Positions 1-63,800 of a stretch of DNA of 64,000 nucleotides are shown here, piece after piece. The translations under genes were made by a program, and so were the position numbers. How positions within the stretch are numbered: the stretch's first letter is position 1; every line of letters starts with the position of its first letter. The notes below the pieces were generated by a model that ran no database searches, was not told the DNA's origin, and saw only the letters and a program-made list of their open reading frames with translations. This DNA comes from Moniliella sp. 'wahieum' (lineage: Eukaryota): assembly GCA_003971905.1 (NCBI GenBank), contig RSEE01000054.1, positions 248,001 to 312,000 of the forward strand. The letters run 5' to 3'.

Positions 1-2813
1 AAATCGCATCGGGTTCAGCCGAACGTTGAAACAACGCATCCAAACCACCAACGCCGGCGCCCGGCCCGCGCGTCACCGCCACTCTCACCTCCCGCACCTG
101 AAACACCCTAGCGAGCACTCCCGCTCTTCCGAAGACAGCGAGACCGTCCCTGACCCCAGCCCCCCGAGGCTGAACGGCATCCAACGCAAGAACTGTTTTT
201 GGACGGTGGCTCGATGGCTTGAAACGCTTGCTCTGATCCTTCCCGCATTCTCCCCAGCCTCCTTTCACATGGCTTTCTCCTTCCTGCTTGCTATCTACTA
301 CCCTGACTCTTTATCTGATTGTAAGCCCCTGCGCCTTTTCGCGCCCAACGGACGCTGCACGTTAACCCTGGCCCTGGCCAGCCTCACCCCGGCTGCTATA
401 TATGGTGAGCGAAGCCAGATGTTCTCACTCCCCATTCGTCCTCTCTCATCTTATCATTCCGTACCTACATACCCCATCATCCTGTTCCAAATATACTCAT
501 TTTGGGCAACTACTTTTGAATCTACCTTGGGGGCACGAGATGCAAACCTTTCTGCATGCCGTGCAGACCAGCAGTGTAGACTTCGTTCGTCCCACTCGAG
601 AGCATTGCGCGTTGATCCTCTTCCATCGCATTGCCCCTCACCTCCCTCCCTCTTTCGCCCTATTATTGTCCTATACGCTCAATTCCTCTCGCGCGCCATG
701 CGCCCCTTCCCTCCGTACAGTTCATGGGACCCCCCCCTGAGCCCGATCGCCCTGTTCCCGTGGCTCCTTGCGGGGCGGCCCTCTGCGGCGTCCGATCCAC
801 TCGCTCCCCCATCACTGCCAGCTCTCTGGCGTATACCGGTTATTGAGGCAGAACAGCGGCGCATCCGTTTCTGCCGTGCAGACGGAAGTCGTGGTCATGA
901 ATACCGTAAGCAGTCAGATGCAAACGGTGCCTGAGGCCTCTGATATTGGGCCCATGTCCCTTGTGACAACGTAGGAGGGCAACGCTCTGGAAAGGAATAA
1001 TCGGAACCAGACCGACCTCACATCCCCCACTTAACGTGTGTGTGAGTAGGTAGATATGCTCATCGCTGCAAGTGAAAGGCACAAAGGTGCGGTGTTACTC
1101 GTCCCACACACATTTTGTTAGGCACACAGGGGTGGGCAACGCGGTAAGGAACGGGCTGTTGAACGGTAACATGGTAATCCATTACCTGGTAGCCACCTAT
1201 TGTATCGATTGTACGAAAAGGTATCGATGAGGCAGGGAGGCCTGTGGACTGCCTTGTGGGCTTGCCCCATATGGTTGGTAGAGTGACTCGGAGCGCACTG
1301 AGGCCTCAGCCTGAGGACTGATAAGGTCTGTGGTTACCAAGGCCAGAGAGGTGCTGGGGCCGCTGAGTGTGGCGAGGGCGGTAAAAAACGGCAAGTGGTG
1401 GTGAGAGCGAGTAAGATCAACAGCGCGTGAGAAGAAGAGGGTGGCGGGAAGGAACGTGGAACACGTTTTAAACGCAGAGCACGTTGAGTACTGCATCATA
1501 CTAAGTACCAATGTTCCGTTGTAACCATATGGTCCTGCCAGGCCAAGCACATGTCTGCAGGCATTGTGCCTGTTGGCCTTTCGGCGAATTAAATGTTCTA
1601 TTGAAAACTACTGGTGCTGTAGGATAGCATCGAGACGCCTATGATGGTCTTCTCTTCGGCAAAAATGCGGAGGGATTGGGGCGTCTTGAACATGGAAATC
1701 ATCGAGATTGTCGATCCTGCATCATGCATCATGCAGAACACTGTGAACACGGTCCGCTATGTACTTTGACAGTGGTGTGGCAATAATGGTCCACGTATGG
1801 GGAGGCAGCTGTTGGCCGTTGGTACAGTACGTTTTCATTGCTTTGGGGGGGCGGGGGGGGGGGGCGCTGCAAAATGTATGCGGGGCACAAGCAAAACTAA
1901 ACCAAACAACCGACACTTGGCGTGGCGGTGGCCACGGGACCGAGCCTACACCGAGCACCGCTCAGGGTGCGTTAGCGTTCGGCCGTTTCGGGCCGCGGGG
2001 ACAACGGGAACAGCGGGGACAGCGGGACAGCGGGGCACCGGAGACGGCAAGTGGTCGCCGCAGGCGGTGGCCAGTGTTTGGCTTTTTTGTGGTAGGAAAC
2101 GAGATGAGATTTGAGAGAAGTGAGCTCTGTGGAACCGGAGACGAGGCACCCGCTGCGAAACAGCGCGGAATAGGCGCCACAGCGTGGTAGGGTCTGGTAG
2201 GGTTTTCGGTTATGCAATGCACTATCATTCACTCGTCCTGGCCAGGCGCCTCTACCTGGGTGTCAACACACCGCCGCGCAACGCCGCAATTGCAGAACAC
2301 AACCGCCGATTCGTTTAAGCTTCCAGGCGCTGAACTTAGAAAAGCCTTTAAGCTTTATCGCTTTATCTGCAGGTGCTCTCCAGGTGACATCTCCGCTTTT
2401 CTTCTCTTCCTTCCAACGCGCAACACATGAAGAGGACGCCACGTCGCAGTTGAATGCACCAACATGCATATACACAAAGAGAACCAACAGAGCGTTCTCA
2501 GCAAATGGAGAGAGGGATGCCAACGAGAGGAGAAGGTATGAATTTTGGTGTGAGGCCAATCGGGTAGGAAGGCAGAAGGGGATAATGAATGTAATGCCCG
2601 CAGGGGGTAGAGGAGCGTGACAGAGTACCAATGTGCTCCGGTGTGTGGGGGAGGGTGAAGACCTTTTGGTAACAAACGAGAGAGGGTGGTATGACCCAGC
2701 CAGCAGGAAACCGCGGCCAGGTATGAATATGACAAGTCATAATGACAGTGGGGAGGAATAAGGAGCGAAATTAAGCCACCAAGAGGGAGGGAACGGGGGA
2801 AAGGCAAGTGTGG

Positions 2814-4165: not shown

Positions 4166-4909
4166 TGGGGGTGTATGCAGGGGCGCGAAGAGTTGGTGTC
4201 AGAGAGGGAAGAAAAGGAGAAGAGTGGATGGTGGACATGCGCTGCTGGCTTGGGGGGGAAACAGGGCGTAGCCTATCTGCCGCGGGGCGTTGGGCGCGAT
4301 GGTGTAGCCGCAGACTGGGTGCTGGTAGGTGCTGTAGAAACAACACCGCTACGTACCATGCGACGGTGATTTAGCTTTGGGCTTAGCGTATAAGAGGCTT
4401 GAAACGGAAAGCTTAAAGCTTATTAAGTATGCCATCCCATGTCCCAGCCACAACGCTGCCTTGTCCCACCCATCACCCATTACCGGTTACCCATCACCTC
4501 TTCTCCAGGCCGATCACCGAATGCCCACTACTGCCCCGAGCTTGGGTGGTGCCCGGCACTGCACACTGCCCATCTGCCCGGCAGCATCTGCTGAGACTAG
4601 GGAGGTGCGGCATGTGACATGGGGCATGCGACATGTGTCACGTCCGAGGCCGATCTAAGATCTGAGAGATGATCGATGAATATGAATATTCGATCGATGA
4701 ATAAGCTTTGGACTTGGGAGTGTGCCATTCTATTAGCAACCACACTTCTCCATACCAACAGCACCGGCAGCACAATCTCCCTTGCACTTCTCGCATCTCT
4801 ACCGCAATCACTCGCATCACCATCATCCTCACCGCCATCCCCGACGCCAACACCCCCACCACCCACTCCCAGCGCCCAGCCCACGTGTTAGCTGTCCCCT
4901 ACAGTACAA

Positions 4910-4981: not shown

Positions 4982-6257
4982 TTCATCTTGCGGGGGTATA
5001 GCGTGCGTTTAAAAGTAACTTATTCCTAGTCTGCGATGAGGTCTTAGTAAGGCTTCGGCCTCAGTGAGGTCAGGCCGGATTATTAGGTGTATCGTCCTCG
5101 GTAGCTTCCCACCCTCCCCCGTGCCAACAACGAATCAGACCATTTCATGTGTATACATACTTTCCTCACCTCCACCACACCCCCACCGCCAGGCTTCAGG
5201 AACTTCAAGTGAAGCTTCAGGCCCTTTTCAGGCCCTAGGGGGCACTCCCGCCGTTCCCTCCTAATTTTCTTACTTTGTTTCCCTTTGGGCTCTTTGCGCT
5301 GTCCCTAGCTTGACGAGGGGCATCCCAGATCGTAACGCGCAATGCCTATATTTTTTTTTCAATTGAGACAGGAAACATTACGTTGGATACGCGGATGTGT
5401 CGTCTCGAACCTTACCCTGCCTAGGTCTGTGCGCTGTGCATAACCGGAGGATAACCGGGAACCGGTGCTCTTCTTGAAGAGCATCATCGGCATCGATCAT
5501 CGAGATCATCTTACCTGCCCACCAACGTGCCTCCTAAACCACCAATCATTCATGAATGTTCCACCCCGCTTCGCTCTGAGGGGAAGCTTATATATGTGTG
5601 CTGGGCGCTAGGCACCAACGGTGCAAACTCGGTTCACGTGGTCCTTGCTACGAATGGGGCCGGATCCACATGGGTTTCCAGCGAGACCCGTGAGCGCGGT
5701 AGGGTTCCAATTTCCAGGCGAGACCCCACCAGTCCCCCACCACCCCCACCATTCACTGGTTTTGCAAACAGAGGCACTCAGTACTCATCGTGCACCTGAC
5801 ACCATAAACCAAACATGAACCAACGACATTCAACGCCATCTCGACCGTTGGCAAGTAGCAACCCTCCCGCTTCCCAGTTGTGCCATCGATCCTATTTCCC
5901 CTTGGAGCTTTGGTTGATCTAGCCTCTTGTCCCTCAGTCCAACAGCAGTCCGATGTACGACGGTGGGCCACAGGGCAACACAGCTGAGCTCAGCGCTTCG
6001 CGCTTACTGTGCCTCCTGGGGGCCCACGGGGGACCCCCCCCGCCACCCACAAGTCACGGTGACTCGTGACGCGGTCACTTCACCGCGTGAGCTCCTCTCC
6101 GCTCCAAGTCCCCCGCCCTCTCTTCTTTTGTGACATGGCATGTGACGCATGTGACTGGCCGACCCAACGGGCCCGGGTCCGGACCCGGGTCGCGAAAGCG
6201 ATACGATTGAGCGGATTGAGTGCACCGGCTGACCGCTCAAGGGTTGTTGGGCTTAAG

Positions 6258-6270
6258 GTTCAAGTTGAAC
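6258..6270. promoter_or_regulatory. Palindrome GTTCAAGTTGAAC (copy 1 of 3), candidate cis-element
   Basis: The exact 13-mer also occurs at 31614 and 59080, and all three copies are intergenic. A regulatory role is inferred. Confidence 0.4.
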
Positions 6271-6630
6271 GTTGAGCCCCGCTGTGAGCCACTCCGGCTC
6301 AGCGGCTGAGCCCGAATCCTGATACTCATTGGCGGGCATGCTTGTTGCTCGCTCAGGCTCAGTACTCAGTGCCATCAAGGCGGGAACGACCAAGTCGATG
6401 AGAGCAAGGTTATGCAGGTTATGCTGTGGGCGGGCCAGCGAGATGCAAGCCATTGGTAGCTAGCTCTAGCTAATAGTTTGGGGGCCGTACGTGTACGAGG
6501 GGCTGAGCCTGTGTCAACCAAGGTCTCATTAGGGTACGTGATAAGGTTGTCGTGCTAGCGCGGCAAGATAGGATCGGCAAAGGTCAGGAGGTAGGGCGAA
6601 GGCGGAGGCAATTTTGGGGGCGGTAATCAG

Positions 6631-6660
6631 GCTTCAAGGTTCAAGGTTCAAGGTTCAAGG
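6631..6660. repeat. Heptamer tandem repeat (TTCAAGG)x4
   Basis: gcttcaaggttcaaggttcaaggttcaagg. Confidence 0.9.
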
Positions 6661-7213
6661 TCGGAAACTAGAGGCAGGGAAGAGGGGAGAAACGAAGAGG
6701 AAAGCAAGGGATCGGACAACGGGGACGTCACAAAAGGTCTGTAAGACTGAATGGGGAGCGTTCCAGACATTCGGCGTCCAAGCCGTCACGACAGAAGACC
6801 TCGTTGTGCAGGATGCATGATGCAGGTGCAGCACAGAGATGGAGTCAAAAAATGGGCAAAGGAAAGAACAAGAGTCACGCGTGCTACAGGTCGTCAACAG
6901 CGGGAATGATGCTCATTAACCAACACTGTGCATCAATTTGGTGGCCAACGGTGGACTGAAGCGAGATAGAGGAAATGATGAGGGGGAAAGGGCGAAGGGG
7001 AGGGAAGAGAAGGGGGGAGAAGAGAAGGGAAGGGGGGAAGGGATGATCGACAACGTGTCAAGCGTATACCGAGAGGGGGGATAGGGGGTTAGGGGTCAAC
7101 GGTCGAAGCATGATGATCAGTGCAGGGCAAGCCAGGGTGACATGTGGGAGCCAGCCCTTGCCTTCCATCTTATTGGGCAGCAGCCTCCATGCTAGGCCCT
7201 AGGCTGGGGGCAG

Positions 7214-15126: not shown

Positions 15127-15939
15127 GGCGAGCGCAGCAGCGAAAGGAGGAGAGGTGGTGGTGGGGCGGTGCTGGGTCGCGCGACGAGGTGCGCTCCCGC
15201 CAGCGCCCGCTGGACGCAGCACGCACCTGCCCCGGGTGTGTGAGATTACACAGGGCCGCACAGGGGCAGTGCGCACCCCTCTGGAGGGCCATGGCAGCGT
15301 CAATGTGGGACGCCGCTTGTGGCACGGCGCCGGTGTGGGTGAGAGGGCTGCGCGGCTGGTGCCCCGACACCGCATGGCGCCAGTCTCCTGGTCCCTGAAA
15401 CGTTTCCATCGCACGGCGGGGCCACAGGCCCCAGCCCGGTCTAAGGTGCGCTGGAAACGCCTCCTATTCCTGGACAATTGAACGGTGATTGATTATTGAT
15501 TCTGCGAGCCAGCCGGGTTTGGTCGGGCTCGGCGTGGGAGCTTAGTGCCGACTTGGCATAGTTTACCTCGCCTCCATTAATATTCAGCTTGCCCGCCTTG
15601 GATTGTGCTACACTGCAAACCCTCTCCAATAAGCACACGTAGTCATTGCGACCCACACTACCCGTGCGGCCCTCAGAAATACCATACACTGTGGAATTTG
15701 GCTCGCTGGAAGCGAGTCCCGTACCCACATCTACGTCAGGAGTCCCCCAAGGCCGACCTGGGCAAGGACGAGCGAATAAAGGCATTGCGGGCATGAAGCA
15801 TGAAAGCAACAGAACATCCCGTACAAAGCGGGAAAAGCCCTATCGGGGTGGCACGAGACAGATTTTGTTGAGGGCGGGACTACTTGGCGTTGCAACGCAG
15901 AACGACGGGCAGGGGCGCCGGCACGAGTTCGGGTCCATT

Positions 15940-16722: not shown

Positions 16723-17384
16723 GGCTGACAGTGCCCAGGACGGGCGAGGAACTGGGGCCAGCGCTTGCACACAGACGCTCGTCGGCCCGCGACGGGGATG
16801 GGTTGTTTTGGAAGCGCACTTGTGGACACAGCTCATCCTCTCAGGTTGTACCCACCCTTGAAAAGCTCACGGTAATGGAGCGCGGCTGACGCCTGACGTC
16901 AGCCTGGTGGCGCCACCTAGGGCAACTCGCCCCGCCCTCATAACCAGTTGAAAGCCTCCTCCAGTTTCAACCTTACTAGTTTGACAAAAAGCGAAGAGGG
17001 CGCAAGAGAGACTGATAACGATGAAGGTTTATCTATCGGAAGGGAGACAGGGTCACATGTCACCAGGCGGCACAGATGAGAGAGGCGTCAAGCTTCAAGA
17101 GACAAAATGAAGTGGACAGAGAGGGAAATATACTTATTGGCACACGGCTAGAATCTCCAAGGGGGTGGGTTATAGAAGAAACGCTCTAGGCAGCCCGGGG
17201 GGTGAGAGATGATGTGTGTGCTGATGTGGATATAGGGGGGGAATAAACAGTGCGGTTTTGAGAGTGGTGTTAGAGTCCGCAGAGAATTGTTGGCCGTGAT
17301 GAAAATGTGAATCGTAAATGTGAGTAGGAGAAGAGTGTTTGCCCATATATGCTGCATCCGCACAGCGAGGCAAAGGACAATCAG

Positions 17385-20061: not shown

Positions 20062-21517
20062 GTTGGGGGGGCACAAAAGAGGCAGAGAAACGGATGTGTG
20101 TGGACGGTGGTGTGATGCACAAAAAACCGGTAAGAAGAGGGAGCACGGTTGCGGGCAGTGGAGATAATGATGGCGATATCCTTCTTGGAGGAGGGACAAT
20201 GGAGAAAGAGAGGAGAAGAATGCGAAAGGAGGAAGGAGCTGGGGAAACGGGGGCTATGTGTTGCGAGAGCAAAACAACGGCGCCCCACACCGTTTGGGGC
20301 TTGGAAGGCCCTGAGCGCCCTGAGCGCTGATGCATGATGCATGGTGCTGTTGGGGCATGGGCACACGGGCGCTGTACCAGCTCCCCTTGTGGCGCAACTC
20401 GGTGCCAGCAGCAGGGCGCCAGTGCGCAGGTGACGTTGGCACATCCGCCACAGGGGCACAGTCCCCTGCTATCTGCCGTCCAAGCCAAGACCCTGAGACA
20501 CACCCCGGACCTGGGCGCCCTGAGATCCTGAGATTCTGAGAGCTTGAGGCGTCCGAGAAGGACATGAGCGCTGGATGTGGCCTAGGCCGGAGCACCTGAG
20601 CGCTGGAACCTGCTTGAGCCCCCCAAGCCACACACCGCCGAAGATGCCCACATCCAACGGGCCACGCTCTGCCTCGCCACAGTGCTGGCATGCCTCTGTA
20701 GCCACGCCACCACCGCCACTCCAACTAAGAGCACAACACCCTACTTTCAGTCTGCTGTTGGTTTCCGGCCCATTTTCCGTCACGCGTCATTGTCCTCGAC
20801 TTCATTTCATCAATCAGCGTGCAAACGTCACCGTCTTCAGGCGCATGGCAACACGTGTAACAGTCGGGGCTAGTAGTCGAGCGAGACCAAGGTGCTGTCA
20901 GAGACGGAGGGGGAAATGATGGCCAGGTCGTTCTCGTGTGGTGGAAAACAGGAGGCATCGGGCAGAGAGAGAGAGAGGGACAGAAGCAATGAATGGGAAA
21001 GGGCTGAGCAGCTGTTCTTCACCAGTGGAGATGCCGTCGTCCGACAGCCGCGGTCACGGCCTCCGTGACCCACATAGTTGGTGGCTTATGGAACGGTGGA
21101 CTAATAGCCTAGCAGTGGCCCAAATGACCCCAAACAGCTCGCCGTGGGCACTCCCAGCCGTGTTTCCTGACGCCTGTTCTACGGGGTTTCCTGTTTACCC
21201 TTGCCCTGATTCTCCTTCAGTCCATCTACCTAACTTTCCCTTTCAGACTGACTGTCACACGCCGGTTTCCCGTCAAGCCGATCCTGAGTTCCAGGCTTGC
21301 CATTTTCGCAATGGACCCCCTATGCGGGTCCGGCACGTGGCATATGCCTTAGCTGCAGTGCGGTATGCGCTGAAGGATATGCGTCTGTGCCCTCTATGTG
21401 TTTGCTCTGTGTGTCGCAATCGGGCGGAGACGCCAGAGACAGTATAGATCCCCTTTCAGACCGATTGCGAGCCCTGGGAATCAAGGGGCTTCCAGCTCCC
21501 CAGTCCTGGAACGCTTA

Positions 21518-31627: not shown

Positions 31628-34399
31628 CTGAATGCTGCACGCTCTCCCTCAGCGCCGGCCGAGCGCTGACCACGTGACGCGCCAGTCGACCCGCACCGCC
31701 CCCATCAACCTCGCTGGCGCTGGGCGGGGCAGCCAGCCACACCCGCCCATGTCCTCGACGCCTCGCCTCCCTCGCCTCCCCCCTTCTGTGGCCTCCACAG
31801 ATGCTGCCTTTCCAAGGCAAGACGACGCAGTCCAGAAGCGCTTTGGCGACATCGTATAATGTACCTGAGACCCCCCCCGGCGGCACCGCCCCAGTGTGAG
31901 CCGCTGCGACCCCCATGTGGGGATGGGCGGTGCGCCATATGGAGCGCTCCGCCGCGCTCGCCCCCTCCAGCGACCACATCATCGCCCAAACGGCACCTGA
32001 TTCAAATACGAGCCACCATCCCACGCGCCACCCGCAGCCAGGATGATCGATGACGCAGATGACGCTTCAGAAGCTCCAGCAAGGCTCACTGCCCTACCTG
32101 CCCTTCTTGTCGCTCTCCTCCCGGCGGGCGAGGGACTGATCCAGCTAATCCGCCGCTACTCCCTCCGCGCGATCTTTGGCGTGGCGGAGCGGCTCTCGGT
32201 GAACCGCGCGTCATCGACGTGTTCGAAGGACAAGTATGGTATGTCTCAACGAATGTATTGGCCACTCTCCAAAATGCTCGCGGTCTCGTCTGTCCGATTG
32301 CAATGCCGGGGCACTCCCACTGCTACTGATGCCGCTGACGGTGACAAGTTGCGGGGCTCGGGGAGCATGCGGCAGTGCGTCGGCCTCTGTGCGTGCATCA
32401 CGCATCCCTAGAGAATATATCTGCTATACTATCAAGGTACATGGATGACGTTTTGTCGTGCCCTACCAGGCATCCTTTTTTTCTGGAACTGGCTGTGCTT
32501 TGATCAACTCTTCTCCTCGATATCGTCCCACCGACCTGACCAACAACAGGTCATGCATTACCCTCGCCCACCCACACAGAGTAACTTACTGTACTAAATG
32601 CCAACAATCTCGGGGCCGTTTGCGGCGTTCAGTCCCTAACGCGTAACGACTGATGTGGATCCACAATAATCAAAGGTGGTGAACACAAATGACCGCAGCA
32701 GACAATAAAAAGCGGAGAACACGGGCCATCGCGAGGATGGGCATATCAGCGCGGTAGTAAGCACAGCGTGTGCAGAAGAAGAGAGATTATCCGCGATGGT
32801 ACGTGTTACGAAGTTGGGACGTTGGACGTTGGACGGTCTCCGGCACGGGGTACTGCGTACTGGAGCTAGTTGTGCCCTGGTGTACCGAACAACGAAACGA
32901 ATAAGGAGAGGATGAGTCACTATCAAACTTTGGTGCCAAGAATCCCACGCCAGACCCAGGTATCATGACGAGACTCAAGTGCCGCTTCCAGCTGGAGAAC
33001 AATATGGTGATTGCTGGATACTATACGGACTGAGTAATGATGCATGTACTGCTGGCTCATTGCGCCCGGTACGCTCCTAATAGCATCAACGTTCAACGAA
33101 CACCCTCATCGATCGTAACTACATCTCTCACATCTCAAGTTTCATCGACCACATATGATCGATCATCAAACCCACCCTCACATATCCTACAGCCTTGCCA
33201 TTTCACTCGTATCCTGGAGGGTGTTGTGGGCGTCTCCTCCCGCCACCAGCGGCCGAGAGGGTGCCTTGACAGACAAGCGGAGGGCTGGGGCGCCACAGCC
33301 GAGCTGCGGAGACAAGTGGAGGGGGAAAGGGGACGAACGCACAACAGAAGGGCGATCACATATGTGCGTTTGTGCTCTTCTTTTTGGAACGGTTGAGCTT
33401 ATATTACTTGAGCTCAACACTACGGGCACCCAGGAATTTCCAATCGCTACTCCTCCCTTCGTCAGCGTGCCATCGGGCCACCGGCCGTCATTAATCATTT
33501 TGCCACACGGAATGAATGGTCAGATCTCGGATCGCACATCTCAGACGGAGGAGAGGAAGCAAGGAACTTCTCTCTCCATTTCCTAATTGCAAGATTCGTT
33601 GTGTTTGAAGGATGGGAGCCCTGGGCGCCAGATCATCGTCAGCGGGTCAACACGTCAGCACGTCACCTGGGTGAGCAAGAGACGCAGATCGCTCAATGGT
33701 ATTAGTAGTGGTGGCGGAGAAGTAAGATCCAGTTGGCAGTAGGTATGAGAAGGTTTTGGCCTAACGTGGGTTATTTAAAAAGGGATGTTCAAACACAGCA
33801 GCTACCTAGCTCAGGCGGAAGAGCGGTGGGCTCATAAAATACCTTGTGACCCACAGGTCGTCGGATCAAGACCGACGGTAGCTACTTTTTTATTTTGCCG
33901 TAGTTAGTATACGCTGGTTGGGCTGGTGCAGCTCTCGGTGAGGCTGGATACGTCGCTGTTCAATCAATGTCGAGGGGGGCATCGGGCGATCAAATACAGC
34001 CGTCGGAACGGGGTCTTGCCCACCATCTATCCCGAGGGAACCAACCCACTTCCTCCTGCCCTGGTTCAACATGCGATTAGGCCGCCTCCTTGACCGGTAT
34101 TAAGGACCTGCAGATGGTCAACATTACCTGCCGTGTCCTCTCCCGGCCCGACGCGCACCAGCGCTCTTAACCCAGCCCAGCTTCAAGCTTCAGCCTTCAG
34201 CACCCTCGGCATGGTCCTCCATTCCCTAGCGCAGCGAATCCCATCTATATCCAACAGTAAGTGAGGGCATGTACATCGGTGCTCCAACGAAAGTGCTCAT
34301 CTTTTACACAAGCCAAGTTCGCCACCACATGCAGGTGGTCCACGGTGCGGACGAAATAGGCCGGTACATAGCGGCTTTGGTGGCCCAGCGTCGTAAGGG

Positions 34400-36394: not shown

Positions 36395-36424
36395 GCGTTA
36401 CGCGTTACGCGTTACGCGTTACGC
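36395..36424. repeat. Heptamer tandem repeat (GCGTTAC)x4
   Basis: gcgttacgcgttacgcgttacgcgttacgc. Confidence 0.95.
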
Positions 36425-37062
36425 CTTGTGCCTTAGGGCATCTCCGAATCCCACGGCCTGGTCTGGTTCCCATATTCGAGAACAACCCTTGACACTTTCT
36501 TGACTTGAGACTGAGTCAAAACGTTTCGTTTGTTATGTCCGTTTTCCTCCTCTCCCACAGTCCATTCCCGCAGCCATGCATTGTAAGAACGTCTTCTACG
36601 CGCTAGCACTCTTCTTCCAGTCAAGCGCCGTGCTTCAAAAGCTTCAAAAGTAACTAATACTGACATGGACAAGAGGGAGAGGTGACGGTCAGCACTCAAA
36701 ATGACCGTTGGTACCGCGGGTCTCCACGCGCTGAGGCTGAGCACGCTGAGCGCTGAGCCCAGGCTGAGGCTGAGGCTGGGCGCTAAGTGCAAGTGTAACA
36801 TTTTAACACGCGAGCCCAAAGCCACACGAAGAGCCCCCCAGGTTGAACGTGTGGCAACGTGTGGCCGTGGCGCCTGCGCATTTCCATTTGCATTTCCGTT
36901 TGCACGGTCAAAGTGATCATCGATCACATCCCCCAGCTCTCGTTGGCTTTTTATACCCGGCATAACGCACGGACAAGCATGGTATTACTTGTGTAGTCCC
37001 CGTCGGCCCGATGCCCGCCGAGGTCGTCACGCGTCACGTAAACGTTTTGATTTCTCCCCTTG

Positions 37063-37106
37063 TCAAGCTTCAAGCTTCAAGAGCTTCAAGCTGCAAGCTC
37101 TTCAAG
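37063..37106. repeat. Degenerate heptamer repeat (TCAAGCT)n
   Basis: tcaagcttcaagcttcaagagcttcaagctgcaagctcttcaag. Confidence 0.9.
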
Positions 37107-37253
37107 TGCGCGTCAGGCTCAGGCGCTCATCGATCATTCACCATCCCTCGCGTCGGCGGCTTGGCTGTCAGTTGCCGGGGAGCAGAGGCCGCTGTCTTGG
37201 CGCTCTTTCTGTTGGTTGCAGTCAAAGCCATTGGCAAAACGCCAGTACGCGCG

Positions 37254-37281
37254 TCACGCGTCAGTACTCAGTACTCAGTAC
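37254..37281. repeat. Heptamer array TCA-CGCG-(TCA-GTAC)x3
   Basis: tcacgcgtcagtactcagtactcagtac. Confidence 0.9.
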
Positions 37282-37824
37282 CAGTGGAGAGGAAAACGAG
37301 TGACTAGTGACATGGTGACTCAAACGCTCAAGGAAAGTGGAGAGCCTTAAATTATCGCGTTGGAGTACTGAGAGTCAGATTATTACGGGGACTGGCGTTG
37401 CTGTACCGCTTCCCTCACCGGCTTTTCTCTCCCTTCCCCTCTTCGCTTCTCGCTTCCCCCCACGTTGTTGTTAGCCAACAAAGTGCGCTCCGAAGCGCGG
37501 CGAACACATACGGTCGGGCGAGTAGACCGTAGCCAGTCAATTGCATGCGGATCGATGCACGATGCCGCGTCCCTGCTCCGTGTCCTACTCTATCCACTCG
37601 GCCACCCGCCTGGATCGCAGCGTCTGACATCCGAACGTCAACTGGGCCCACCCCTGCGCTCCATCCCAGCCCCCGCCACCTCCTAGTACCACTACCACTA
37701 CAACACGTAGAATGTTCTGAGTGATCTGCTTGTACGTTCACCGTGCATTCCCACACGCGGATTTGCTACAAACAGATTGCGGCGGCGGGGAGGGGGGGGC
37801 CTCCTCATGCATCATATCTCCCGC

Positions 37825-42723: not shown

Positions 42724-43452
42724 GGGACGGCGGGGGATGGGGGGGATGGGCAGGGGAAGGGGCTGGAGGGCGTGGACGGGGCGCAGAGCACGACGGAGAC
42801 TAGCCGGTGGTTGGTAGCTTCTCGTGCCCTGGCAGGTCACCGATCCAGCCGAGGCAGAGGCTCGGCTGAGAGCTGGGACACTGCCCGCGTGCTGGGAGAC
42901 GCGCGCCAAGCATAAGCGGGCCTGGGCGTGGGAGCGGTGACGGAGTGATAGTGACGCGAGTGACTAGTGACTAGTGACGCACAGACGGGGGACGCGACGG
43001 CGGACTCGGAGGGACGAAGACACGGCTATGCGAGGCGAGGCGATGGATGGTGGGGGGCGCCGCCGCCGCAGCAGCACCCGCTGCGGACAGCAAACGACGC
43101 CAGAGGGGGCGGTGGTGTCCGACGGCTGGATGTGGGCGTTCGACGGTCGATGTGTGAGCGGGACGGCTGGGCAGGCAGGCAGGCGGGCACTGGTCACGTG
43201 GCGCGAGTGACGTCACGCGCCTGCCCAGAACGGGTGGACAGTGGGGCGGGCAGCGAAGGACTAATTAATGACAGCCGCCGCGCTTCTGCCTTGGTCACAT
43301 TTTGCCCCTGGGCTAGCCTCCCTCGGCTGGCCTCTCCATGGCCTCCCCTCGGCCCCCCATCCACCCACCCCCAGCAGGCCTGGACGCCGCCGCCGCCACG
43401 CCCCGCTTGCCCCACTTGCCCCCCTCTCGCCTCTGCCCGCCGCCCCGCCGCC

Positions 43453-45993: not shown

Positions 45994-46947
45994 GCCCTGG
46001 ACCCACATGCATTGCATTGCCCATACCCCGCCCGACTCGGGATCGCCCTCTTCTCCCTGGCTGGTGAACTTCACCGTTGATACCCAACCCCCTCCCCTCC
46101 CCACGCTGCGCCCTGAAAATACACAAGGACGACACGACGCTCGCTTGTCTGGATTTCCTCCTGTCCGCCTCCTCGGCTGCCCGCTAGTATTTTCCACATG
46201 AGGAGGGCCATCTATACCTCCTTCGCTCTCGCTCTCCGCCACTCCCGCTCTCCGCCACTCCGCTCTCTCCTGCTATTGCCCGTGGCGGCGTGGCTGGTGG
46301 CGGTGGGCCTGGGGGGGCAGGGCAGAGGGGGGCCCAATCGCATCTCTCATTTGGCACCGGAATACGTGTGTGGCTAGAGGAAACGTGGGGCTTGAAGCTT
46401 GAAGTGCGGGGGACGGTGGATGATCGATGATGTGACAGGTGATGTGGCAGATGTCGATGATGTGGGGCGCGCTGGTGGAGACGGCTGCGGTATGCGATTG
46501 CTGATGATCGATGACGAACGCCAGCCTGCGCTCCGGGTGGCTCAGCCCCGGCGTCCTGGCAGTCAGCTCAGCCTGAGCGGTCAACGTATTCAACTTGCGT
46601 TCCTCGTCGCCGCGACATTCGTGAAAGCGACGAGGCCAACAAGCCATGGGGGATGCACGGGCCACCAGTCCTAGCTTGGCACTTAGACTTAGCACTGAGC
46701 TTAGCGCTTAAAGCTTAAATCAGCGCAACCCTGCTCGGCCCTGCTCGGCCAGGGAACAAGCCAAGCATACCGGCGTTATGATGTGTAATGTCCCCACTGT
46801 TTTTTTTCGCCCCACAGGCATTACATGTTACAGTTATCCAATTGAAATGATGTTGATCGCGGGTATATAGCCTCCCCCAGCTTCTTCTTTCCGCCCCCAA
46901 CGGCCACTTTCCCTGCATTCCCCTGCGCCTTCCACCAACCCTTGGCT

Positions 46948-52992: not shown

Positions 52993-53893
52993 ATGAGGGC
53001 GGTGGGGAGAGAGAAGACAATAGGAGAGATTGGAGGTAGGCGCACGAACAACAAAGTTGGAAAAGAGGAAAGGGTAATGGTGGTGGAAATGGTGGTGGTG
53101 GTGGTGGCAAAAGTGACTGGTGGGCGAGAGCTAGTATAGGCCGGTCTGGTGACGTGCGAGTGACCTGTCCCTGTGTTCTGTCTCCTTTTATCGATTATCA
53201 GGCGATGAATGAAGAGCGAATGACTGCTGTGACATACTAAAACGAGCTTAAGACCACATAGCATATTATTGCCCACCCACACACACTGCCTTCTCCACCA
53301 CTAAAAGTGAGTGCGTGTTCAATGCAGAAGGTGCCCGGTGGCTCCCGATTTTGGAATGAAGGCTCCACATGCCCGATTCCAACTCCTTGCAAACAATCCG
53401 GGGGGTTCGTCTGTAGGATCCCGACCACTTGTTTTACCCTCTCTGTGGAAACACTTTTTATAGCTAAAAAATAACCACATTTTAAGCTTTAAACTTTATC
53501 CCATCAGTCCCGCGTTCCCGCGTACTACCTGCACCAAGGCAGTGTTGGCCCACCCTGTGTATCACAGCTGCCCCCTCTCCACGCTCCTGCTGCGATTTAC
53601 ATGCGGAAGGCGCCACAGCCGCCACTACCACCATGGGTTTGCCTGCCTTGATGTGGCACAGCAGTGCGATGATGTCCAAAATGGCCCCCTTTTGGTAGTC
53701 AGTTGTGCCTCCCCATCACTAATAGTCACTCCATATATGTGGAGCTAAGAATGTGCACAGCATCAGATGGCCGCCTTTCGCATAGCATCCTGCATCCCCC
53801 CCGGCCTTGTGTTGATAGACAATTTTGTGCGCTGCGATGTCCTGATATCACCCTCGAGGGAGATGCATTCGCGCTGTGAGACATGTGATAGAC

Positions 53894-54370
53894 CTGGAGT
53901 CCTGATGGTCTCGAGGTGATGCAATCGCACTGGTGGTGGGTGGTGGTGGCAAGCCAATCAGCAACGCCTACTACAGAGGAACATCAAAAGCAGCGAGTCG
54001 CACCACAGGGGCAAGCTGCGGAACAAGGTGTTGAGCCATCGGGTGGCTCGTGCTTTGGCCAATGTCCCTTCAGTTCCTCCTCAAGCCTGGGAGTTCCGTT
54101 GTTTCTCTCTCTTGTTTTTCCTTATTCCGCAGCTTAGCCCCTGGTGGCGACTCGCTGCTTGTTGTTCCTCTATAGGCATTGCTGGTTGGCTTAGACCACC
54201 ACCACCACCAGTGCGATTGCATCACCCTCGAGGACATCAGGCCCATCAGGACTCCAGTAGATCTCATCACAAAAAGGACAACACAGGAGGGAGAAAACAA
54301 TGGTCCTCCTAGGCCTGATGAGGAACCAAAAGGACTTTGTTCGAAGCACGAGGTACCCGGTGGCTCAACA
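53894..54370. repeat. Interleaved inverted repeats A-B-A'-B'
   Basis: A (53894-54028) is the degenerate reverse complement of 54120-54257. B (54029-54117) is the degenerate reverse complement of 54279-54370. Confidence 0.9.
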
Positions 54371-54900: not shown

Positions 54901-56374
54901 TAAATATTCCTGCCAGCCAGGAAGGAATATTGCACGGAACAAACCAGAAGGTTCCGGACTTGGGCTACCGGCGCCACTACCAGTGTGGCGTCACAGTTAG
55001 GAAGACTTGGTGGGCTCGTCGGCCAGAGCGGCTTGAAGCTTTTGAAGCTTGATCGATGATGCGAGAGGCATCAGATGCAGGGCCTCTCACAGGATCACCA
55101 GAAGCGCTGTGAATATGTGAATGCCCCAGCCCCCGGCTGTAAGGGGAAAGGAATATTCTCGAGAGGGGAGAGATTAGAGCGGTCCTAGTCCCTCCGCGGA
55201 GGCGTTTTGTGGAAGAGCTATGGGCGGCCCGTGGCATCCCTCACCTGAGCGCCTCAGCTGAGGAGGCCCGTGGGCCTGACGCGCTGACGTGACGCGTGGC
55301 ATGCGACATGCGGCATGTCAATGTGACATGATACATGATGTATGATGCATGATGATGATGCATGATGAATGGAACTTGGAGCTTGGAGCTTGGTGCATGT
55401 GCATGGCGTGAGATCTGGTGAAATTCACACCGATGGAGGGGCTGCCGTGGGTAGCAAAGGCCAAGTAGTATGGCAGGTGACCGGTGGAATCGAGAATGGG
55501 CGGGAGACAGAGCTCGGGCCTGCTCGGCCTCTGGGCAAGGCCAACTAAGGACTGCGGCTGAGCGCCTGCTCAGTTTTAACGTTCAGCTTCGGATTTCAAA
55601 AGCTTCAGACTTCAGTTCAAGCCTATATGAGCAAGAGGGAGGCCTGACATGCTGACACGAGGCCTTGAGGCATCAACTTGAAGCTTGAGGCTCAAGGCGC
55701 TTAAGCTTAAGCCCGAGGGCCTCAGCCTGAGGATGGAGGGTGGACGCAGATGGCAGGTGGCAGGCGATGGCTGAGAATTTCGTGAGACAGGAAGAATGTG
55801 GGGTGGCGAGAGGCGAGAGGGGTGAAACAATGCTGCTAGACGGTAGACGTTAATTCTGGCTTTCAGAGTTGGGCGCCTGATCTCCATGGAGTGTCCAGGC
55901 AACACAGCTGCGCCCCCCGGCCTTCAGGTCTCCGGCCGCCTCAGCGCCTCAGCCGGAGATCTGAGATGGAGAGGCCGAACTAAAACGTAGAACTGCGGCG
56001 CGGTGCCCTCAGTGCTGCGCTGCGCGAGATCGCTGAGGGTCTGATCGATGATCTTACGCCCTGTCTTTCGGAAGCTTGAAGTTAGTATGTCACACGTTGG
56101 CGTGTCAATTGTTTCTCGCAGTCGGCCGCAGTCGCCAGCCGCGTCAGCGCCGCACCGGGGTAGCCGGCTTCGCACGTATATAGCTTCGCGGTCGTTTCCT
56201 CGAAAGAGTGCGTTGGAGATAACAAGCCACCATCCTACTCGTCTCCTCTCTTCTTTCCTCCACCAGTCTCACCCTGCCTTGCTCCTGGCTAGCCCCAGAC
56301 TCCCGTCAGCTCGCGCTGTGGTGTCTTTTTGACCTCCACCCCCCCCCTCATCCACCACCACCATCACGTCAACC

Positions 56375-58701
56375 ATGTCCGCGCCCTCTACCCTCCCCTC
56401 GGTCACTGTGCGCGATGCCCAGGGACGGTCCGTCTTTGTCGGCCCTGCGGACGGTGCCGCCGTCTCCGCTATCCCTCCCGAGGTCCTCACCCCGAACGCT
56501 AGCGTCACCTTGTTGGCGTTGGCCGTGTCCAGCCCGTCACCGCCCCCCATGGCGGCATCCTTCTCCGCCCGCTTCCGCCCACTGCCCGCCGCAATAAACG
56601 TATACGCTCCATTGTCTCGTTTCGTCCCCGCAGCAGCCGCTTCGACCGCTTTAACACTGAATCGTCGGCGGACTCGTTTCGTGGCTTCTACACTCTCTTT
56701 TGGATCACCATGTTCCTTGCCATGCTCAACTCATTTTGGCGCACGTACCACCACACTGGCTCCATCCTCTCCCTCAGCTTTTTCAACCTCTTTAGCCGCG
56801 ATGCCAAAATGCTCGCGGTTTCAGACTTTGTCTTGATCGCCCACCTCTTCCTGGCCTTACCCCTCATCCAGTTGGCCACGCGCTACCGCATTCGCTACGC
56901 CAATGGCCTCGTATATCTTGTGTACTTTTGGCTCACCGGTATGCTTGCTGCAGTCATTCAGTGGAGTCGCCGGCGCGAGTGGCCTTGGGTTCAGAGTGGA
57001 TTTTTTGTCCTGCATACCATGGCCATGATGATGAAGCTCTACTCCTACCTTGACGTCAATGGGCACTTTGTGGATGATTACTGGAGCCTGCACGACAAGG
57101 AGGCCCAGCTAGCCCTGGAGGTGGAGCGAGTTGAGGGCGACGACGGAGAGAAGAGTGCACCATCACATGAGTCTGACAATGACTCTTCACATTCCTCTTC
57201 TACCAACAGCTTTATCTCTGACGCTCCCGATCGTGCTACCCGCGCCTGGCGCCGTGCCTGTTGTTCGTGCCCTTCACCAGGCAGAGGTGGTCGACGACAA
57301 TTTCGTCGGTGGTATTGTCAAATCTGATTGGTGCAAACAACAGCTTCAGCAAGGGATGTGCCGCGAAAGGTACGTGGCCAAAAACACGATTCCCTGGCAT
57401 TCTTCCATCAAGGTATCTGAAACAGAAGCGTGTGCGCCCCAAACCCACGACGCTCACGAGATCGGTGAGCGGAAAGAGCAGGCCGTTCATTCGAGAGCCA
57501 AGGAAGCCGTCGGCCAAGCACTTTCTATGGCGGGGATCTCCTCGGATTCCGACGCCGACAAGGAGAAAGATGCCACTGGCATCTCGGCGGTTTCCGACGC
57601 TGGCAAGGAGAAAGATACCACTGGCATTTCGGCAGGTCCCGAAGCTGGGAAGGAGAAAAATGTGTCATTCATCCCTGAACAGCCCACCATGCCTGCCGAT
57701 CGACGCACTGCACCATCACGGGTCCGCAGGGACGACCTCGTTTTTATTCGTGACCCCCATCCTCTCGCAACTCATCCAAATCCGAAGATTCGACAACTGG
57801 CGGAGGACATTGAAGTGCTGCGGGAAACCCTAGTGTCACGAGACCCCTACAACCGAATGCCGCCTTTGCAGTCCGAACCCTCAACGCCCAATATTGATGT
57901 TGCGGAGGATTTGACGCAACGACACTTCTTCCCCGAAAATTTGACCTTCTTCAACTTTTTGGACTATCTCTTGGTTCCCTCGTTGGTATACGAACTAGAG
58001 TACCCCCGAACCAATTCCATTCGCCCCGGATACCTTGTCGAAAAAGTTCTCGCCACTTTTGGTACCTTCTTCTGCATCTACATCATCACCACAACGTGGA
58101 TCTTACCAATCAGTCCCAATGGGCCCAACCAGACTTGGACGGAAGTCGTTGGTATTTTCCTCCAGCTTTCCATCCCCATGATGGCCTGCTATATCCTCAT
58201 CTTTTACATCATATTCGAGGCCATTCTTAACTTTTTCGCCGAGGCGACGAGGTACGTTCTGTGGCCAACTTACCTTCCCTCGTACAGTCACTGATTACGT
58301 CTTCTCTTTTTCCCTCTTTTATCAGGTTTGCCGACCGTGAGTTCTACAAGGATTGGTGGAACTCCAAGTCGATGGATGAATTTTCCCGGGACTGGAATCG
58401 GCCGGTGCACAGCTTCCTCCTCAAGCACGTGTATGCTTCGACTCTTTCCATCGGCGCCTCCAAACCAGTGGCGGTCTTCCTTACTTTTCTTCTCAGCTCC
58501 CTCATGCACGAGCTGGTGATGGCAATCGTGACGGGTAAACTGCGCGGGTACTTATTCCTGATGCAGATGGCACAGCTCCCGCTTATCGCTCTGGGGCAGA
58601 CCAAGTTTATCAAAGATTCGCCTGCCCGTGGCAACCTGCTCTTCTGGATTGGGCTCATGGTCGGCTTCCCGCTTCTCAACATCCTGTATCTTTCGTATTG
58701 A
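56375..58701 (+). CDS. Sterol O-acyltransferase (ACAT/ARE, MBOAT family)
   Basis: FRGFYTLFW, MMMKLYSY, FPENLTFFNFLDYLLVPSLVYELEYPRT, FADREFYKDWWNS, WNRPVHSFLLKHVY, catalytic SSLMHE. Intron 58252-58325. Confidence 0.95.
57533..57667 (+). repeat. In-frame 45-bp (15-aa) tandem repeat x3 inside the sterol acyltransferase
   Basis: GISSDSDADKEKDAT / GISAVSDAGKEKDTT / GISAGPEAGKEKNVS, with units starting at 57533, 57578 and 57623. Confidence 0.9.
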
Positions 58702-59078
58702 CCTACCCCCCCCCGGTCCCCTCACACACACACTGCTTTGCTCTCCGCCTCTCTCGGCTCCGCTCCATTCGTAACGTTGGTTATCTATCTTGTACGATAC
58801 TATCTGTTCATCCGCTGTCGTGATGTTGCCCTCATTATGTGTTAGGGGCACCTCTCCTGCTCACATATTTTATGTCCGACCTGTTGTCATTTTCTGTGCT
58901 TCCTCTCCAAAACTTCCCAGATACGCACTTGGGTACCATCAGTACATCAGTACCCTGTCCGATTACGATCTTGGATTGGCCGTTGTTGGTCTCAAAAAAA
59001 GTCGCTCGGTACACGTTTTGCCAGTGGATGTAGTCACTACCAAGCCGTCCTACCACTAGTAGGCGGTCAGCATCAGCG

Positions 59079-59093
59079 CGTTCAAGTTGAACG
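59079..59093. promoter_or_regulatory. Palindrome CGTTCAAGTTGAACG (copy 3), ~510 bp upstream of the DUF218 gene
   Basis: Identical 15-mer to 31613-31627. Function inferred. Confidence 0.4.
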
Positions 59094-60834: not shown

Positions 60835-63800
60835 TCTATATTTACCTTGGTCTGTGCCAAGGGTTCCCCTCGTTATTGCCCTGGATCCATCTGGTTCCCT
60901 ACCTACACAAATATGACCTAGCGGTGCAGAAATAATATAATAAGGGGAGTGCACTTCAGTGGCGATGGTGAATAGGAGGAGGAAGAACTACTGATATGCA
61001 CACAGAACCTACATGAATGCGGGACGCAAAAGAGAAGGTCGAATGATGGCAATCTAGTAGTATATCTCATAGTTCTCTATGGCCAAAGGTATACTGAGAA
61101 GTAAGTTAGCGGTGACGGAGGTGAAGGAGGGGCATTGCGTTGGATGCCGGACAAGTTCCAGGGCATACTCACTGACAGCGAGATCAAAAGTCTTACCCCG
61201 ACCAACCCGAGATGGCGATTAGTCCGTCCAAAAGGGGCATGTCCCGGAACGTCAGGCTTCTTTCTACGTCTCTGGCAAAGCGTCAATTCAGGTCCAAGCG
61301 CTGGATGACCTAATCGAGTGCGCGACCCGAGCCGAGTTGTATTTGTTGTCGCTAGACATCCTCCAGGGCCGCAACCATTCACTTGCCTCGCCATGGCCAA
61401 CTCCCAGCTTCCAGTCCCGGGCGCACATCAATAACAGCAACTATAACAACTACGAGCCGATAGACCTAGATGGAGCGGAGGTCCGTCCCGTGAGACGCAG
61501 GTTCCGGCTCAGTGATGACGAGTAGGGCGATCGAACATTCTCAGCCCCGAGTTCTTCGTTACGTCGATTCCGCGCTACGCAGCGGTCTTGCGTACCGACT
61601 TCCTGGACGCCGATGAGGTGTCATTTCCTTTACTCGAGATGGTTCAGCCGAGCTTAGCTTTAAGGGCCATGCCCCCCGATCGAGTTTTGTGGTATCCTGG
61701 ACATACGTCTAGTCTCGGCTCCTCGTTTCAATCACGAGCTTCAACAAAATGATCTTCTCATCGTCGGGCAAGTGTGGGTTGCGAGGTGGTGGCTACGTCC
61801 TCAGGAGAGATTCGAGTTGCTCGAGAGATAAGACCGAAACTGTGATGAAGGCGAAAACCAAGACCTATTGCCCGAGGGTGAGGAGATCGAGGCCATACGA
61901 GAGCTCAATGGGTACGAATAGGCCACCGTGACGCGAGCCGAAGAGGGCTGTGCGCACCGCAGGGATATTAGATGCGCGATGGGTTAATCCAGCCAGTCTC
62001 TCATTTTAAACGCCCGCAAAGACCTTCGGGAGTCTTGCAACCCCGCGGGGTCGCGAGCAGCACACACTGCCCTCATGCCTAACCCCCATCCTCCGCTGTA
62101 TGTGAGACACAGGCTAAAACAGGATACTTGGGTTTTTGGGCTGGATGCATGATATATGCTTTTCTACCTGTGACGGGCTCCTTGCCGGATCGGACCCCGA
62201 GCACTCTGGCGAGCTCCCCCCTGCCGCTTCCGCCTCCGACGATGTGGCTGCCCTGGTCGATGACTAGGAGGGTACCAGCGAGCATGATCACCCCAGCTAC
62301 AACAACAAGCAGCTTGTTTCTTTTTGGCCCGTGCGGTTCATCCTCGGTGAGTCCAACAAAAGGCTCAGCACCTCTATACAGCGGAGGCTGTGGCCCAGGC
62401 GTTTCAACAGCAGGTGATGATCTGCACTCTGCTTCGACCGCTTCCCTCTATCCCCTCGCATCTGTCCCATTTGCCCGAACTCGCCATCATGAGCCCCAAT
62501 GCGTCCTCGGCCATATGCCACAGTCGAACACACTGAGACCGATGTGTATCCCGGGGTATGTTGACTATTCTTCTCTGGTCCTTCTGTGACATTTTGGTCG
62601 TTAGACAAGAAAACTGACCTGTTTCCCTTCCCCTCCGCACAGATTCATGACACGGACGGGGGAGATGTCAGTGCCACGCCACGTCACACCTTTGGCATCT
62701 GCGACGACTGAGGCCGGGGTCGAGTCGACCGAATCGACTCCGTGCCCTGTGGTACCACCGGGACTCCTTCCACATTACCACCACCGCAGCCGCAGGTTCT
62801 TTTCCCGCCCCCGACTCCGACCGGCTTTTCGTTCTCTGACGAGGATGATGGAGAGGACCAGGGGACTCGTACCTCCCCCGTTCCAACAACACGCTGCACA
62901 CACAACCGCTCCCCATACCTGAACCCAAGTGGAAGGCGAAGTTCAAGACTACCTTGTGCCGCGAGCAGGTGAAGGTGCTCGGGGAAGGCTTTCTTTTCCA
63001 GCCACGGAGACCCAACAGGAACATAATCAGAGGGCCCGGGCACAGCGGAAGCGTACCGCCAAGTTCAATATGCTGACCTTGAGGCGCTCCTCGATCGGTT
63101 TGAACAACATCCCCAAAACAATTTGGAGCTAAAGAGTGGACGACAACTCATCCTCTTCGTCCTATTCGTTCTCCCTATTCTCCTCTGAATCTGCAGAGGA
63201 GTGGGATGGGGATAAGTGCGGAATACTCGGAGCCCAATGAGTTGGGGGTGCAGGACCTGATCAACATGGGGGCGCCATGGTTTGACGCACTTCTGCCGTC
63301 CGCGACGCATCCATCCTGAAAAAGGTCACACCGATTAACATGTTCTTTGAGGTATATGGCCAACATGTTTTCGCTCTCTTCCTTCTCAACCAATGGCATC
63401 TGGCGACGGTCAATCTCCACTCAATAATTAATCACCACCGCCATACAATAACCACGGTTACCGGTTAGGATGCATTTTAGCGATTTTCTCGATTATCGAT
63501 CCTCGATTACTGAAGAGAGCCTCATGGCCCAGTCATCTTGGCCTCCAGTTTACTCTCCTCCATCCACATCACAGGGTATCTTGGTATGAGTTCTCATACT
63601 TTCTACCAGCTTTTTCCGCCTTACTGAGGCACTCATTGACGAACCCAGAATCCCAATGTCATACGCAAAATTGATCCGCCGTGCATCTTTATATATTAGT
63701 CACCCCGCGTGTCTTCCCCGAGCGGCTTCTGTTGGACCGAATTCGCCTTTCAGCCACATCGCTTCAGGCAAGTTGTGCTCTGATTCTGGGATGGTCTCCA

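Follow-up and report, generated by a model that had tools for sequence, protein, structure and literature searches.

Palindromic TNA heptamers in promoter spacers of Moniliella sp. 'wahieum' as probable excision scars of a hairpin-forming DNA transposon

The non-coding DNA of a 64,000-nt stretch of the Moniliella sp. 'wahieum' genome (assembly GCA_003971905.1, contig RSEE01000054.1, positions 248,001-312,000 of the forward strand; hereafter the window, from whose first base all coordinates are counted) carries many short units in which two TNA triplets enclose a 4-bp palindrome, so that TNA recurs every 7 bp. We found that the palindrome is no motif, because it is copied from whichever two bases adjoin that particular TNA, and the pattern is a record of mutation rather than a signal. 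Our analysis makes it probable that each unit is the scar left where a cut-and-paste DNA transposon, itself absent from this window, once inserted and was later excised, an element that makes a 7-bp TNA-centred duplication of its target and closes the flanking DNA into perfect hairpins. The pattern had first been noticed by eye, from the letters of the window alone, and the nine runs quoted in that original prediction were all present where it had placed them.

The arrangement TNA-palindrome-TNA occurs 61 times in the window, against 7.15 times in 200 dinucleotide-preserving shuffles (standard deviation 2.45, maximum 15), and when the same N was required in both triplets we counted 49 sites against 2.17. 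Non-palindromic cores between TNA triplets stood at chance level (125 vs 114.4, standard deviation 10.3), which shows that the excess is confined to palindromic cores. By a count of the site listing made by eye, 15 of the 16 possible 4-bp palindromes are used as cores, AATT being the missing one. The suspected periodicity was also borne out: among exact lag runs of at least 12, lag 7 came first with 7 runs, followed by lag 3 with 5 and lag 6 with 3, all other lags having 0-2, and lag-7 identity was raised only outside long open reading frames (ORFs), where it reached 0.281 compared with 0.265 at lags 8, 10 and 11. Likewise, the avoidance of coding sequence noted by eye was real, with 52 sites (4.67 +/- 2.3 in shuffles) in the 30.8 kb outside ORFs of at least 600 nt and 8 sites (2.79 +/- 1.6) in the 33.2 kb within them. 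Of nine in-ORF sites, four sit at the margin of an ORF, two fall in an ORF that lacks support, and three have different N in the two triplets.

Grouping of the 61 sites gave 53 chains, 41 with the same N and 12 with different N. In 35 of the 41 same-N chains the palindrome can be written from the two bases next to TNA, first as their reverse complement and then as they stand, the templating flank being the left only in 16, the right only in 13 and both in 6; one-sided templating, with two bases mirrored from a single flank, accordingly characterizes 29 of the 41. Only 3 of the 12 different-N chains fit a flank template, which is chance level. An unbiased search of both strands for any 5-mer followed by the mirror of its first two bases and then by the same 5-mer gave 87 matches against 9.2 expected, and in 51 of the 87 the 5-mer ends in TNA (TGA 21, TCA 16, TTA 7, TAA 7), where about 0.05 would be expected. 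Plain 5-bp duplications ending in TNA were at chance (8 vs 5.1), and sites at which the second triplet carries the complement of N numbered 5, one of them flank-templated, compared with 49 that keep the same N.

Each junction was then described by the grammar L2L1-TNA-a/b-TNA-R1R2, where a denotes a prefix of R1R2R2'R1' and b a suffix of L1'L2'L2L1, and all 25 combinations of a and b lengths were counted against shuffles, the grid later being extended to longer mirrored tracts. This gave 62 junctions, 48 with a net gain of 7 bp (+7), 7 of +8 and 7 of +9. The commonest product, L2L1-TNA-(L1'L2'L2L1)-TNA-R1R2 or its mirror image, is the unit of TNA, 4-bp palindrome and TNA, and the two grid cells that represent it, (0,4) and (4,0), held 27 and 24 matches compared with 0.08 and 0.12 in shuffles. 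The +7 class consists of 17 left-templated and 14 right-templated junctions, 10 that are ambiguous because their target is palindromic, 5 plain duplications and 2 mosaics; a single product class thus dominates, with 41 of the 62 junctions, and its unambiguous mirror products are balanced. The window has 97 same-N TNA-N4-TNA pairs, where chance would give about 36 (the sum of two same-N shuffle means), and 48 of the 97 are +7 junctions.

The minor classes reveal the extent of the duplication. A plain 7-bp tandem duplication centred on TNA, with no mirrored base, was found at four loci (6641, 15490, 34190 and 46708; the (2,2) cell expects 0.2), while seven +8 loci have the 7-mer, one mirrored base and the 7-mer again, or a close variant, and seven +9 loci have the 7-mer, two mirrored bases and the 7-mer again, with an expectation of at most 0.02 per cell in either class. 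The full 7-mer NN-TNA-NN is therefore duplicated at 18 loci (4 plain +7, 7 +8 and 7 +9), which requires a 7-nt overlap of two ends, while the main class retains 5 + 7 bases. The palindromes are even-centred, their midpoint falling precisely on the border of the 7-mer, and N is identical in both copies. No +10 or +11 class was present in the junction grid of the window, and in the extended grid mirrored tracts stopped at 2 nt, except for two ambiguous single matches. All classes fit one picture, in which two ends overlap by NN-TNA-NN and each can bear as many as two bases mirrored from that same end. Perfect 9-bp tandem duplications containing TNA were also seen at 6138-6155, 36632-36650 and 55033-55050; they agree with the 7+2 rule when one mismatch is allowed, and may be older +9 scars.

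Outside the T and A of the target, the 31 unambiguous +7 events showed no strong base preference, and their N (23 C/G to 8 A/T) follows the background of all TNA triplets in the window (1832:652). The outer mirrored base L2, which lies at the centre of the new palindrome, was T in one of the 31 events where about 6.5 would be expected, a shortage of marginal significance, and the equivalent position on the unmirrored side showed no such shortage.

The location of the junctions, assigned with rough gene models drawn from long ORFs and Pfam matches, was far from even. Divergent spacers held 27 junctions in 9.3 kb (2.9 per kb) and tandem spacers 26 in 10.5 kb (2.47 per kb), compared with 3 in the 8.1 kb of convergent spacers (0.37 per kb) and 4 in 32.1 kb of genic DNA (0.12 per kb); the two others lie past the last gene model. 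The clustering near gene starts reported in the original prediction thus held with these models. At the rate of promoter-containing spacers the convergent ones would hold 21.5 junctions, and the 3 counted there are all beside an unsupported ORF. Frameshifting indels of any kind are expected to be missing from coding DNA, but the near absence of junctions from spacers between two 3' ends is not expected on that ground, and this suggests that the junctions prefer promoter DNA. A preference for promoters is a property of several cut-and-paste elements.

One locus offers a paralogous pair of what appear to be an empty and a filled site. An inverted repeat of about 400 bp at 53875-54271 (single-stranded fold -106 kcal/mol, z -14) contains, in its left arm, a single CC-TGA-TG at 53901..53907 on the + strand, and in its right arm, at 54235..54250, the +9 product CATCAGG-CC-CATCAGG. 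A global alignment of the two arms places a 9-nt gap exactly where the left arm has its single CCTGATG and the right arm the +9 product, whose complementary strand reads 7-mer, GG (mirroring CC), 7-mer. Each arm has a length of about 150 nt; the two are about 80% alike, have the ends TGTGA...TCACA and carry the tracts GGTGGTGG/CCACCACC. No flanking duplication was seen around the inverted repeat, which could be an old foldback element or miniature inverted-repeat transposable element (MITE), or a structured RNA.

Mirrored terminal bases, known as P nucleotides, arise when a DNA hairpin is opened off its tip. The retention of the same N, the duplication of exactly 7 bases and the limit of two mirrored bases are together the signature of a target-site duplication combined with such hairpin nucleotides. 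We propose that the element would cut its target with a 7-nt stagger around TNA as it integrates, so that 7 bp of target are duplicated, and that at excision both flanks would be closed into perfect hairpins where the duplication ends. A host nuclease would open each hairpin 2 nt off its tip, so that the end stays double-stranded as far as TNA and bears a 4-nt 3' overhang that is self-complementary, and end joining would retain one overhang whole and lose the other, for a net gain of exactly 7 bp with the two mirror products made equally. This could come about by two routes. The overhangs could be laid over each other and the strands ligated directly, so that the top strand would read TNA-R1R2R2'R1'-TNA and the bottom strand TNA-L1'L2'L2L1-TNA, the mismatched 4-nt bubble being separated by replication; alternatively, flap removal and fill-in would give one product or the other. 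Direct ligation without trimming would account for the gain of 7 bp, for a whole palindrome taken from one flank and for the 17:14 balance, while partial trimming of one or both overhangs would yield the plain +7, +8 and +9 classes. Repeated hits on the same or on a newly made TNA would build the arrays and mixed runs. For example, an ancestral CG-TCA-GT could give CG-TCA-CGCG-TCA-GTAC-TCA-GT, and the run at 37252-37285 would combine one CGCG unit templated from the left with GTAC units templated from the right; that at 55033-55064 may be read as three events and two point changes. The concentration in promoter-containing spacers would then mirror a preference for insertion into open chromatin.

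Perfect flank hairpins with even-centred P nucleotides are found with RAG and Transib, and the 4-bp palindromes of the window are similarly centred exactly at the 7-mer edge. The target duplication of Transib is 5 bp long, whereas the 18 loci with a full 7-mer do not fit a 5-bp duplication, and a 5-bp stagger would need two registers to give both mirror products. Sealing of the flanks into hairpins has been shown for hAT, Transib, MULE and RAG (PMC5499845). The scars of the window resemble the footprints and V(D)J coding joints of such systems (Ac/Ds, Transib, Muta1, RAG), as these are described in parts of two sources (PMC5499845, PMC5873905), in that the donor-site target duplication is retained, short inverted copies of the flank stand at the joint and trimming is variable; the same passages make hairpin opening and end joining dependent on the host. 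In Candida, budding yeast and plants, the scars of Ac/Ds show deletions as well as P-nucleotide palindromes, the latter being their hallmark; these palindromes have the complement of the element-adjacent base at their centre, owing to a 1-nt offset of the first nick (PMC5873905), unlike those of the window, which are even-centred with the same N in both copies. The window also differs from flank-hairpin footprints in general in that the mirrored tract never exceeds 2 nt, one class accounts for 41 of 62 junctions, and the scars are a fixed feature, numbering about 2.5-2.9 per kb in promoter spacers, rather than reporter events.

Among basidiomycete DNA transposons, hAT7 of rust fungi and Kyakuja (KDZ group) of Laccaria are reported to make 7-bp target-site duplications (PMC12730594). 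Both share this length with the scars of the window, and hAT is a flank-hairpin superfamily; however, its usual duplication is 8 bp, so that the 7 bp deduced here would fit the hAT7 subgroup only, no transposase of either kind was found in the window, and the passages concerned state no NNTNANN preference (PMC12730594). NuwaII, of the PHIS superfamily together with PIF/Harbinger, is present in fungi and has the target C/TNA/G with a free central base and a 3-bp duplication, according to part of its description (PMC4482050). The TNA target is thus shared, but the 3-bp duplication is not, since 7 bases are duplicated here and the palindrome is copied from outside TNA (PMC4482050, same passages). 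TNATNA with the same N occurs 49 times in the window against 35 expected. A comparison of rice species reported that excisions of DNA transposons leave many small scars across a genome (PMC4423477); that study compared species and had known elements, whereas the scars presented here were read from their own grammar alone. The pattern appears to work like a flank-hairpin excision scar, without assignment to a superfamily. A published description of such a genome-wide pattern was not found in the full-text literature outside subscription papers, and a link to heptamer repeats of smut fungi, suggested in the original prediction, could not be traced in published literature.

Four other schemes for the joints were tried and set aside. 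A 3-bp duplication plus filler, with an overlap of TNA only, cannot put a copy of L2L1 between the triplets and fails at the 18 full-7-mer loci. A 5-bp duplication with two P nucleotides covers only the main class, needs two registers and fails at the same loci. If a palindromic target were simply duplicated over 7 bp, both flanks should fit, which they do in just 6 of 41 chains. An odd-centred hairpin of the Ac type would give the complement of N in one copy, and there are only 5 such sites.

Several observations weigh against the excision-scar reading. No transposase family was matched among the 58 ORFs of at least 200 amino acids in the window (43 and 15, out of 60 listed and one end ORF). 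A scan of the window for 7-bp duplications with adjacent terminal inverted repeats gave one match, with 10 matching bases, which we judged to be chance, and the only dispersed repeats within the window were one coding duplication and one inverted repeat. Sixty-two junctions within 64 kb are a very large number for excision scars that have become fixed, and experimental Ac/Ds scars are far more heterogeneous, with 28 types in 128 events (PMC5873905). Neither flank is matched in 6 of the 41 same-N chains; the mixed runs at 20321 and 55043 fit only with extra point mutations, the first core at 20321 being unexplained by its flanks; and arrays of identical units could equally stem from slippage. 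The distribution of junctions depends on rough gene models, and the apparent polarity of the insertion in the inverted repeat comes from a single paralogous pair without an outgroup, where a deletion in the other arm is possible. There is, moreover, a possible strand asymmetry: type (4,1) was seen six times (20521, 55110, 55277, 55645, 55941 and 58939) and its mirror (1,4) never. Finally, two arrays have TGG instead of TNA (GT-TGG-AC with joint ACGT at 32817-32835, and CT-TGG-AG with joint AGCT at 55375-55393), and either the target could be slightly relaxed or a mutated unit could later have been expanded by slippage.

The hairpin chemistry would be the same if no mobile element were involved and a host-encoded enzyme, such as a domesticated transposase, repeatedly broke promoter DNA at NN-TNA-NN and left repair scars. 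The lack of an element in the window, the very high density and uniformity of the products, and their clustering in spacers that contain promoters all speak for such an enzyme, and a domesticated hAT transposase that makes hairpin-capped breaks, Kat1, has been described (PMC4763223). However, a direct hairpin-forming cut gives flush ends and duplicates nothing, whereas the 7-bp duplication in all classes requires staggered strand transfer and gap filling, and therefore inserted DNA; no candidate gene for the enzyme was seen in the window either. We consider this alternative unlikely.

A further alternative is an error of replication, by slippage or template switching at a small quasi-palindrome around TNA followed by ordinary microsatellite expansion. 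Period-7 arrays of up to 4 units are present, those made of identical units are indistinguishable from slippage products, and the two symmetry centres that such a process would use are real. The original prediction had already argued that slippage of one unit is unable to produce the mixed runs, and it was right in this as in recognizing a non-coding rule with two symmetry centres that does not depend on a particular sequence. Its first proposal, a local mutational process, also survives; what does not is the form it gave to that process, template switching or micro-inversion, since the new copy retains N and not its complement (49 vs 5), 7 bases are duplicated and at most two are mirrored. 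Furthermore, most loci (29 of 41 chains) are single one-sided events, the specificity for TNA is near-absolute (51 of 87), a 1-nt loop is unable to prime fold-back synthesis, judging from what is generally known of hairpin loop sizes, and convergent spacers are replicated too, yet are nearly free of junctions. Replication error is in our opinion an improbable source of the pattern. Plain microsatellite slippage, which should add whole identical units regardless of flank symmetry, disagrees with the one-sided chains and with the strict dependence on TNA.

We regard it as very improbable that the units are a functional array, whether a 7-bp lattice read by a DNA-binding or chromatin protein or a lattice of stop codons, both of which the original prediction had entertained. 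Regular spacing and location in promoter-containing spacers are what such an array would show. The cores, however, take 15 of the 16 possible forms, each set by the local flank (35 of 41 chains), N is at background frequencies and most loci have two units only, so neither a shape-read lattice nor an array of transcription-factor sites with a shared core sequence agrees with the data. As for stop codons, 17 same-N chains have TGA or TAA on the + strand and 24 have TCA or TTA, that is, no bias towards stops. Some scars may nevertheless have been co-opted later. An artefact of assembly or sequencing hardly merits credence, the rule being too specific for one and the junctions being confined to particular spacers and nearly missing from genic DNA.

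The window has a G+C content of about 58% and contains eukaryotic housekeeping genes with few introns. Its Pfam matches include a G-protein alpha subunit, V-ATPase subunit d, Pet127, an isocitrate/isopropylmalate dehydrogenase, a 2-oxoacid dehydrogenase acyltransferase, a mitochondrial carrier with EF-hands, a P450 and a PTP-like phytase. Both Pet127 and the way the genes are arranged are suggestive of a fungus. A metagenome scan with the whole G-alpha ORF as query gave no match, and one with its conserved part gave a single 3.4-kb contig (L001; 58% protein identity), which was too distant for spacer alignment and was not used.

The junctions are listed here from the start of the window, without strand unless one is given. 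The first, a +7 CA-TCA-TG at 1718..1737, has a palindromic target that both flanks fit. At 2346..2369, a +7 CT-TTA-AGCT-TTA, its core mirrored from the left flank, is followed by a +8 CTTTATC-G-CTTTATC, while the +7 TTA-CCGG-TTA-CC at 4478..4491 is mirrored from the right flank. A different-N TC-TAA-GATC-TGA stands with a +7 GA-TGA-TCGA-TGA at 4652..4681, and the +9 GATCATC-GA-GATCATC at 5495..5517 has the 7-mer, two mirrored bases and the 7-mer. Three +7 junctions follow, AC-TCA-GTAC-TCA (5776..5789), GT-TGA-ACGT-TGA (6264..6277) and TCA-GTAC-TCA-GT (6357..6370), then the +9 CATAACC-TG-CATAACC on the minus strand (6407..6424) and an array of plain TCA-centred 7-bp duplications of GT-TCA-AG without mirrored bases (6633..6661). 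Another plain 7-bp duplication, two copies of AT-TGA-TT, lies at 15488..15501, and a +7 TCA-AGCT-TCA-AG at 17086..17099. The mixed run at 20308..20347, whose first core fits neither flank, begins with a +9 (GCTCAGG-GC-GCTCAGG on the minus strand) and continues as TGA-GCGC-TGA-TGCA-TGA; beyond it are the +8 CCTGAGA-T-CCTGAGA (20519..20541) and the +7 CG-TCA-CGCG-TCA (20778..20791).

Further along, the spacer upstream of the G-alpha gene has six junctions at 32042..34203, namely +7 at 32044, 32637, 33086, 33488 and 34183 and the plain 7-bp duplication at 34190. The densest spacer, between divergent ORFs, has 14 at 36395..37312: 13 counted within the spacer 36405-37897 and one at 36398 that was counted as genic. 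It includes a (CG-TTA-CG)x4 array at 36395-36424, the mixed run CG-TCA-CGCG-TCA-GTAC-TCA-GTAC-TCA-GT at 37252-37285, +9 junctions at 36635 and 37077, and +7 junctions at 36747, 36917, 37027, 37063, 37070 and 37301. AG-TGA-CTAG-TGA-CTAG-TGA occupies 42959..42982, where two divergent ORFs meet, and the 0.64-kb spacer upstream of the P450 gene has seven junctions at 46391..46832 (46393, 46421, 46505, 46701, 46708, which is plain, 46709 and 46821). A +7 TTA-TCGA-TTA-TC is found at 53186..53199. The spacer upstream of a HlyIII-like ORF (55033..56055) contains, in addition to the mixed run at its start, +8 junctions at 55110, 55277, 55645 and 55941 and +7 junctions at 55343, 55356, 55679 and 56042. 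The last three are the +8 CATCAGT-A-CATCAGT (58937..58954), the +7 GG-TTA-CCGG-TTA (63456..63469) and the +9 CCTTACC-GG-CCTTACC (63943..63963).

Other repeats in the window are of different kinds. Two long G runs, G20 with one interruption at 1845-1864 and a 33-nt G-rich tract at 35799-35831, lie in spacers. A 45-bp tandem repeat at 57536-57662 (2.8 copies, 82% identity) lies in frame, with 15 codons per unit, within the ORF at 57113-58294. Two direct repeats of 59-69 nt with 83-86% identity, about 355 bp apart (8156-8332 and 8513-8684), fall in the region of the 2-oxoacid dehydrogenase acyltransferase gene and are probably a duplicated protein domain.

If the excision-scar reading is true, the non-coding DNA of this fungus would be a natural archive of DNA-hairpin repair, with thousands of events genome-wide by extrapolation from one window. 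The outcome recorded there would be unusually clean, with hairpins opened 2 nt off the tip and one overhang kept, and would lend itself to work on how a fungus opens hairpins and joins ends. On this reading there should be an element or enzyme that cuts with a 7-nt stagger, centres on TNA and forms perfect hairpins at the flanks. Transposon traffic that leaves no transposon behind would create short palindromes and 7-bp microsatellites in promoters and alter their spacing, and annotators should be warned that periodic "motifs" of this sort would be scars and not a regulatory code. It is conceivable, though we offer this as a tentative and rather doubtful extension, that a single hairpin-forming cut-and-paste system, either a new transposon lineage or a host-tamed enzyme, targets NN-TNA-NN in promoters, has been active enough to leave a scar about every 350-400 bp in promoter spacers and makes its own preferred palindromic targets, from which heptamer arrays grow beside genes. 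Promoter evolution would then have a lineage-specific mutational engine.

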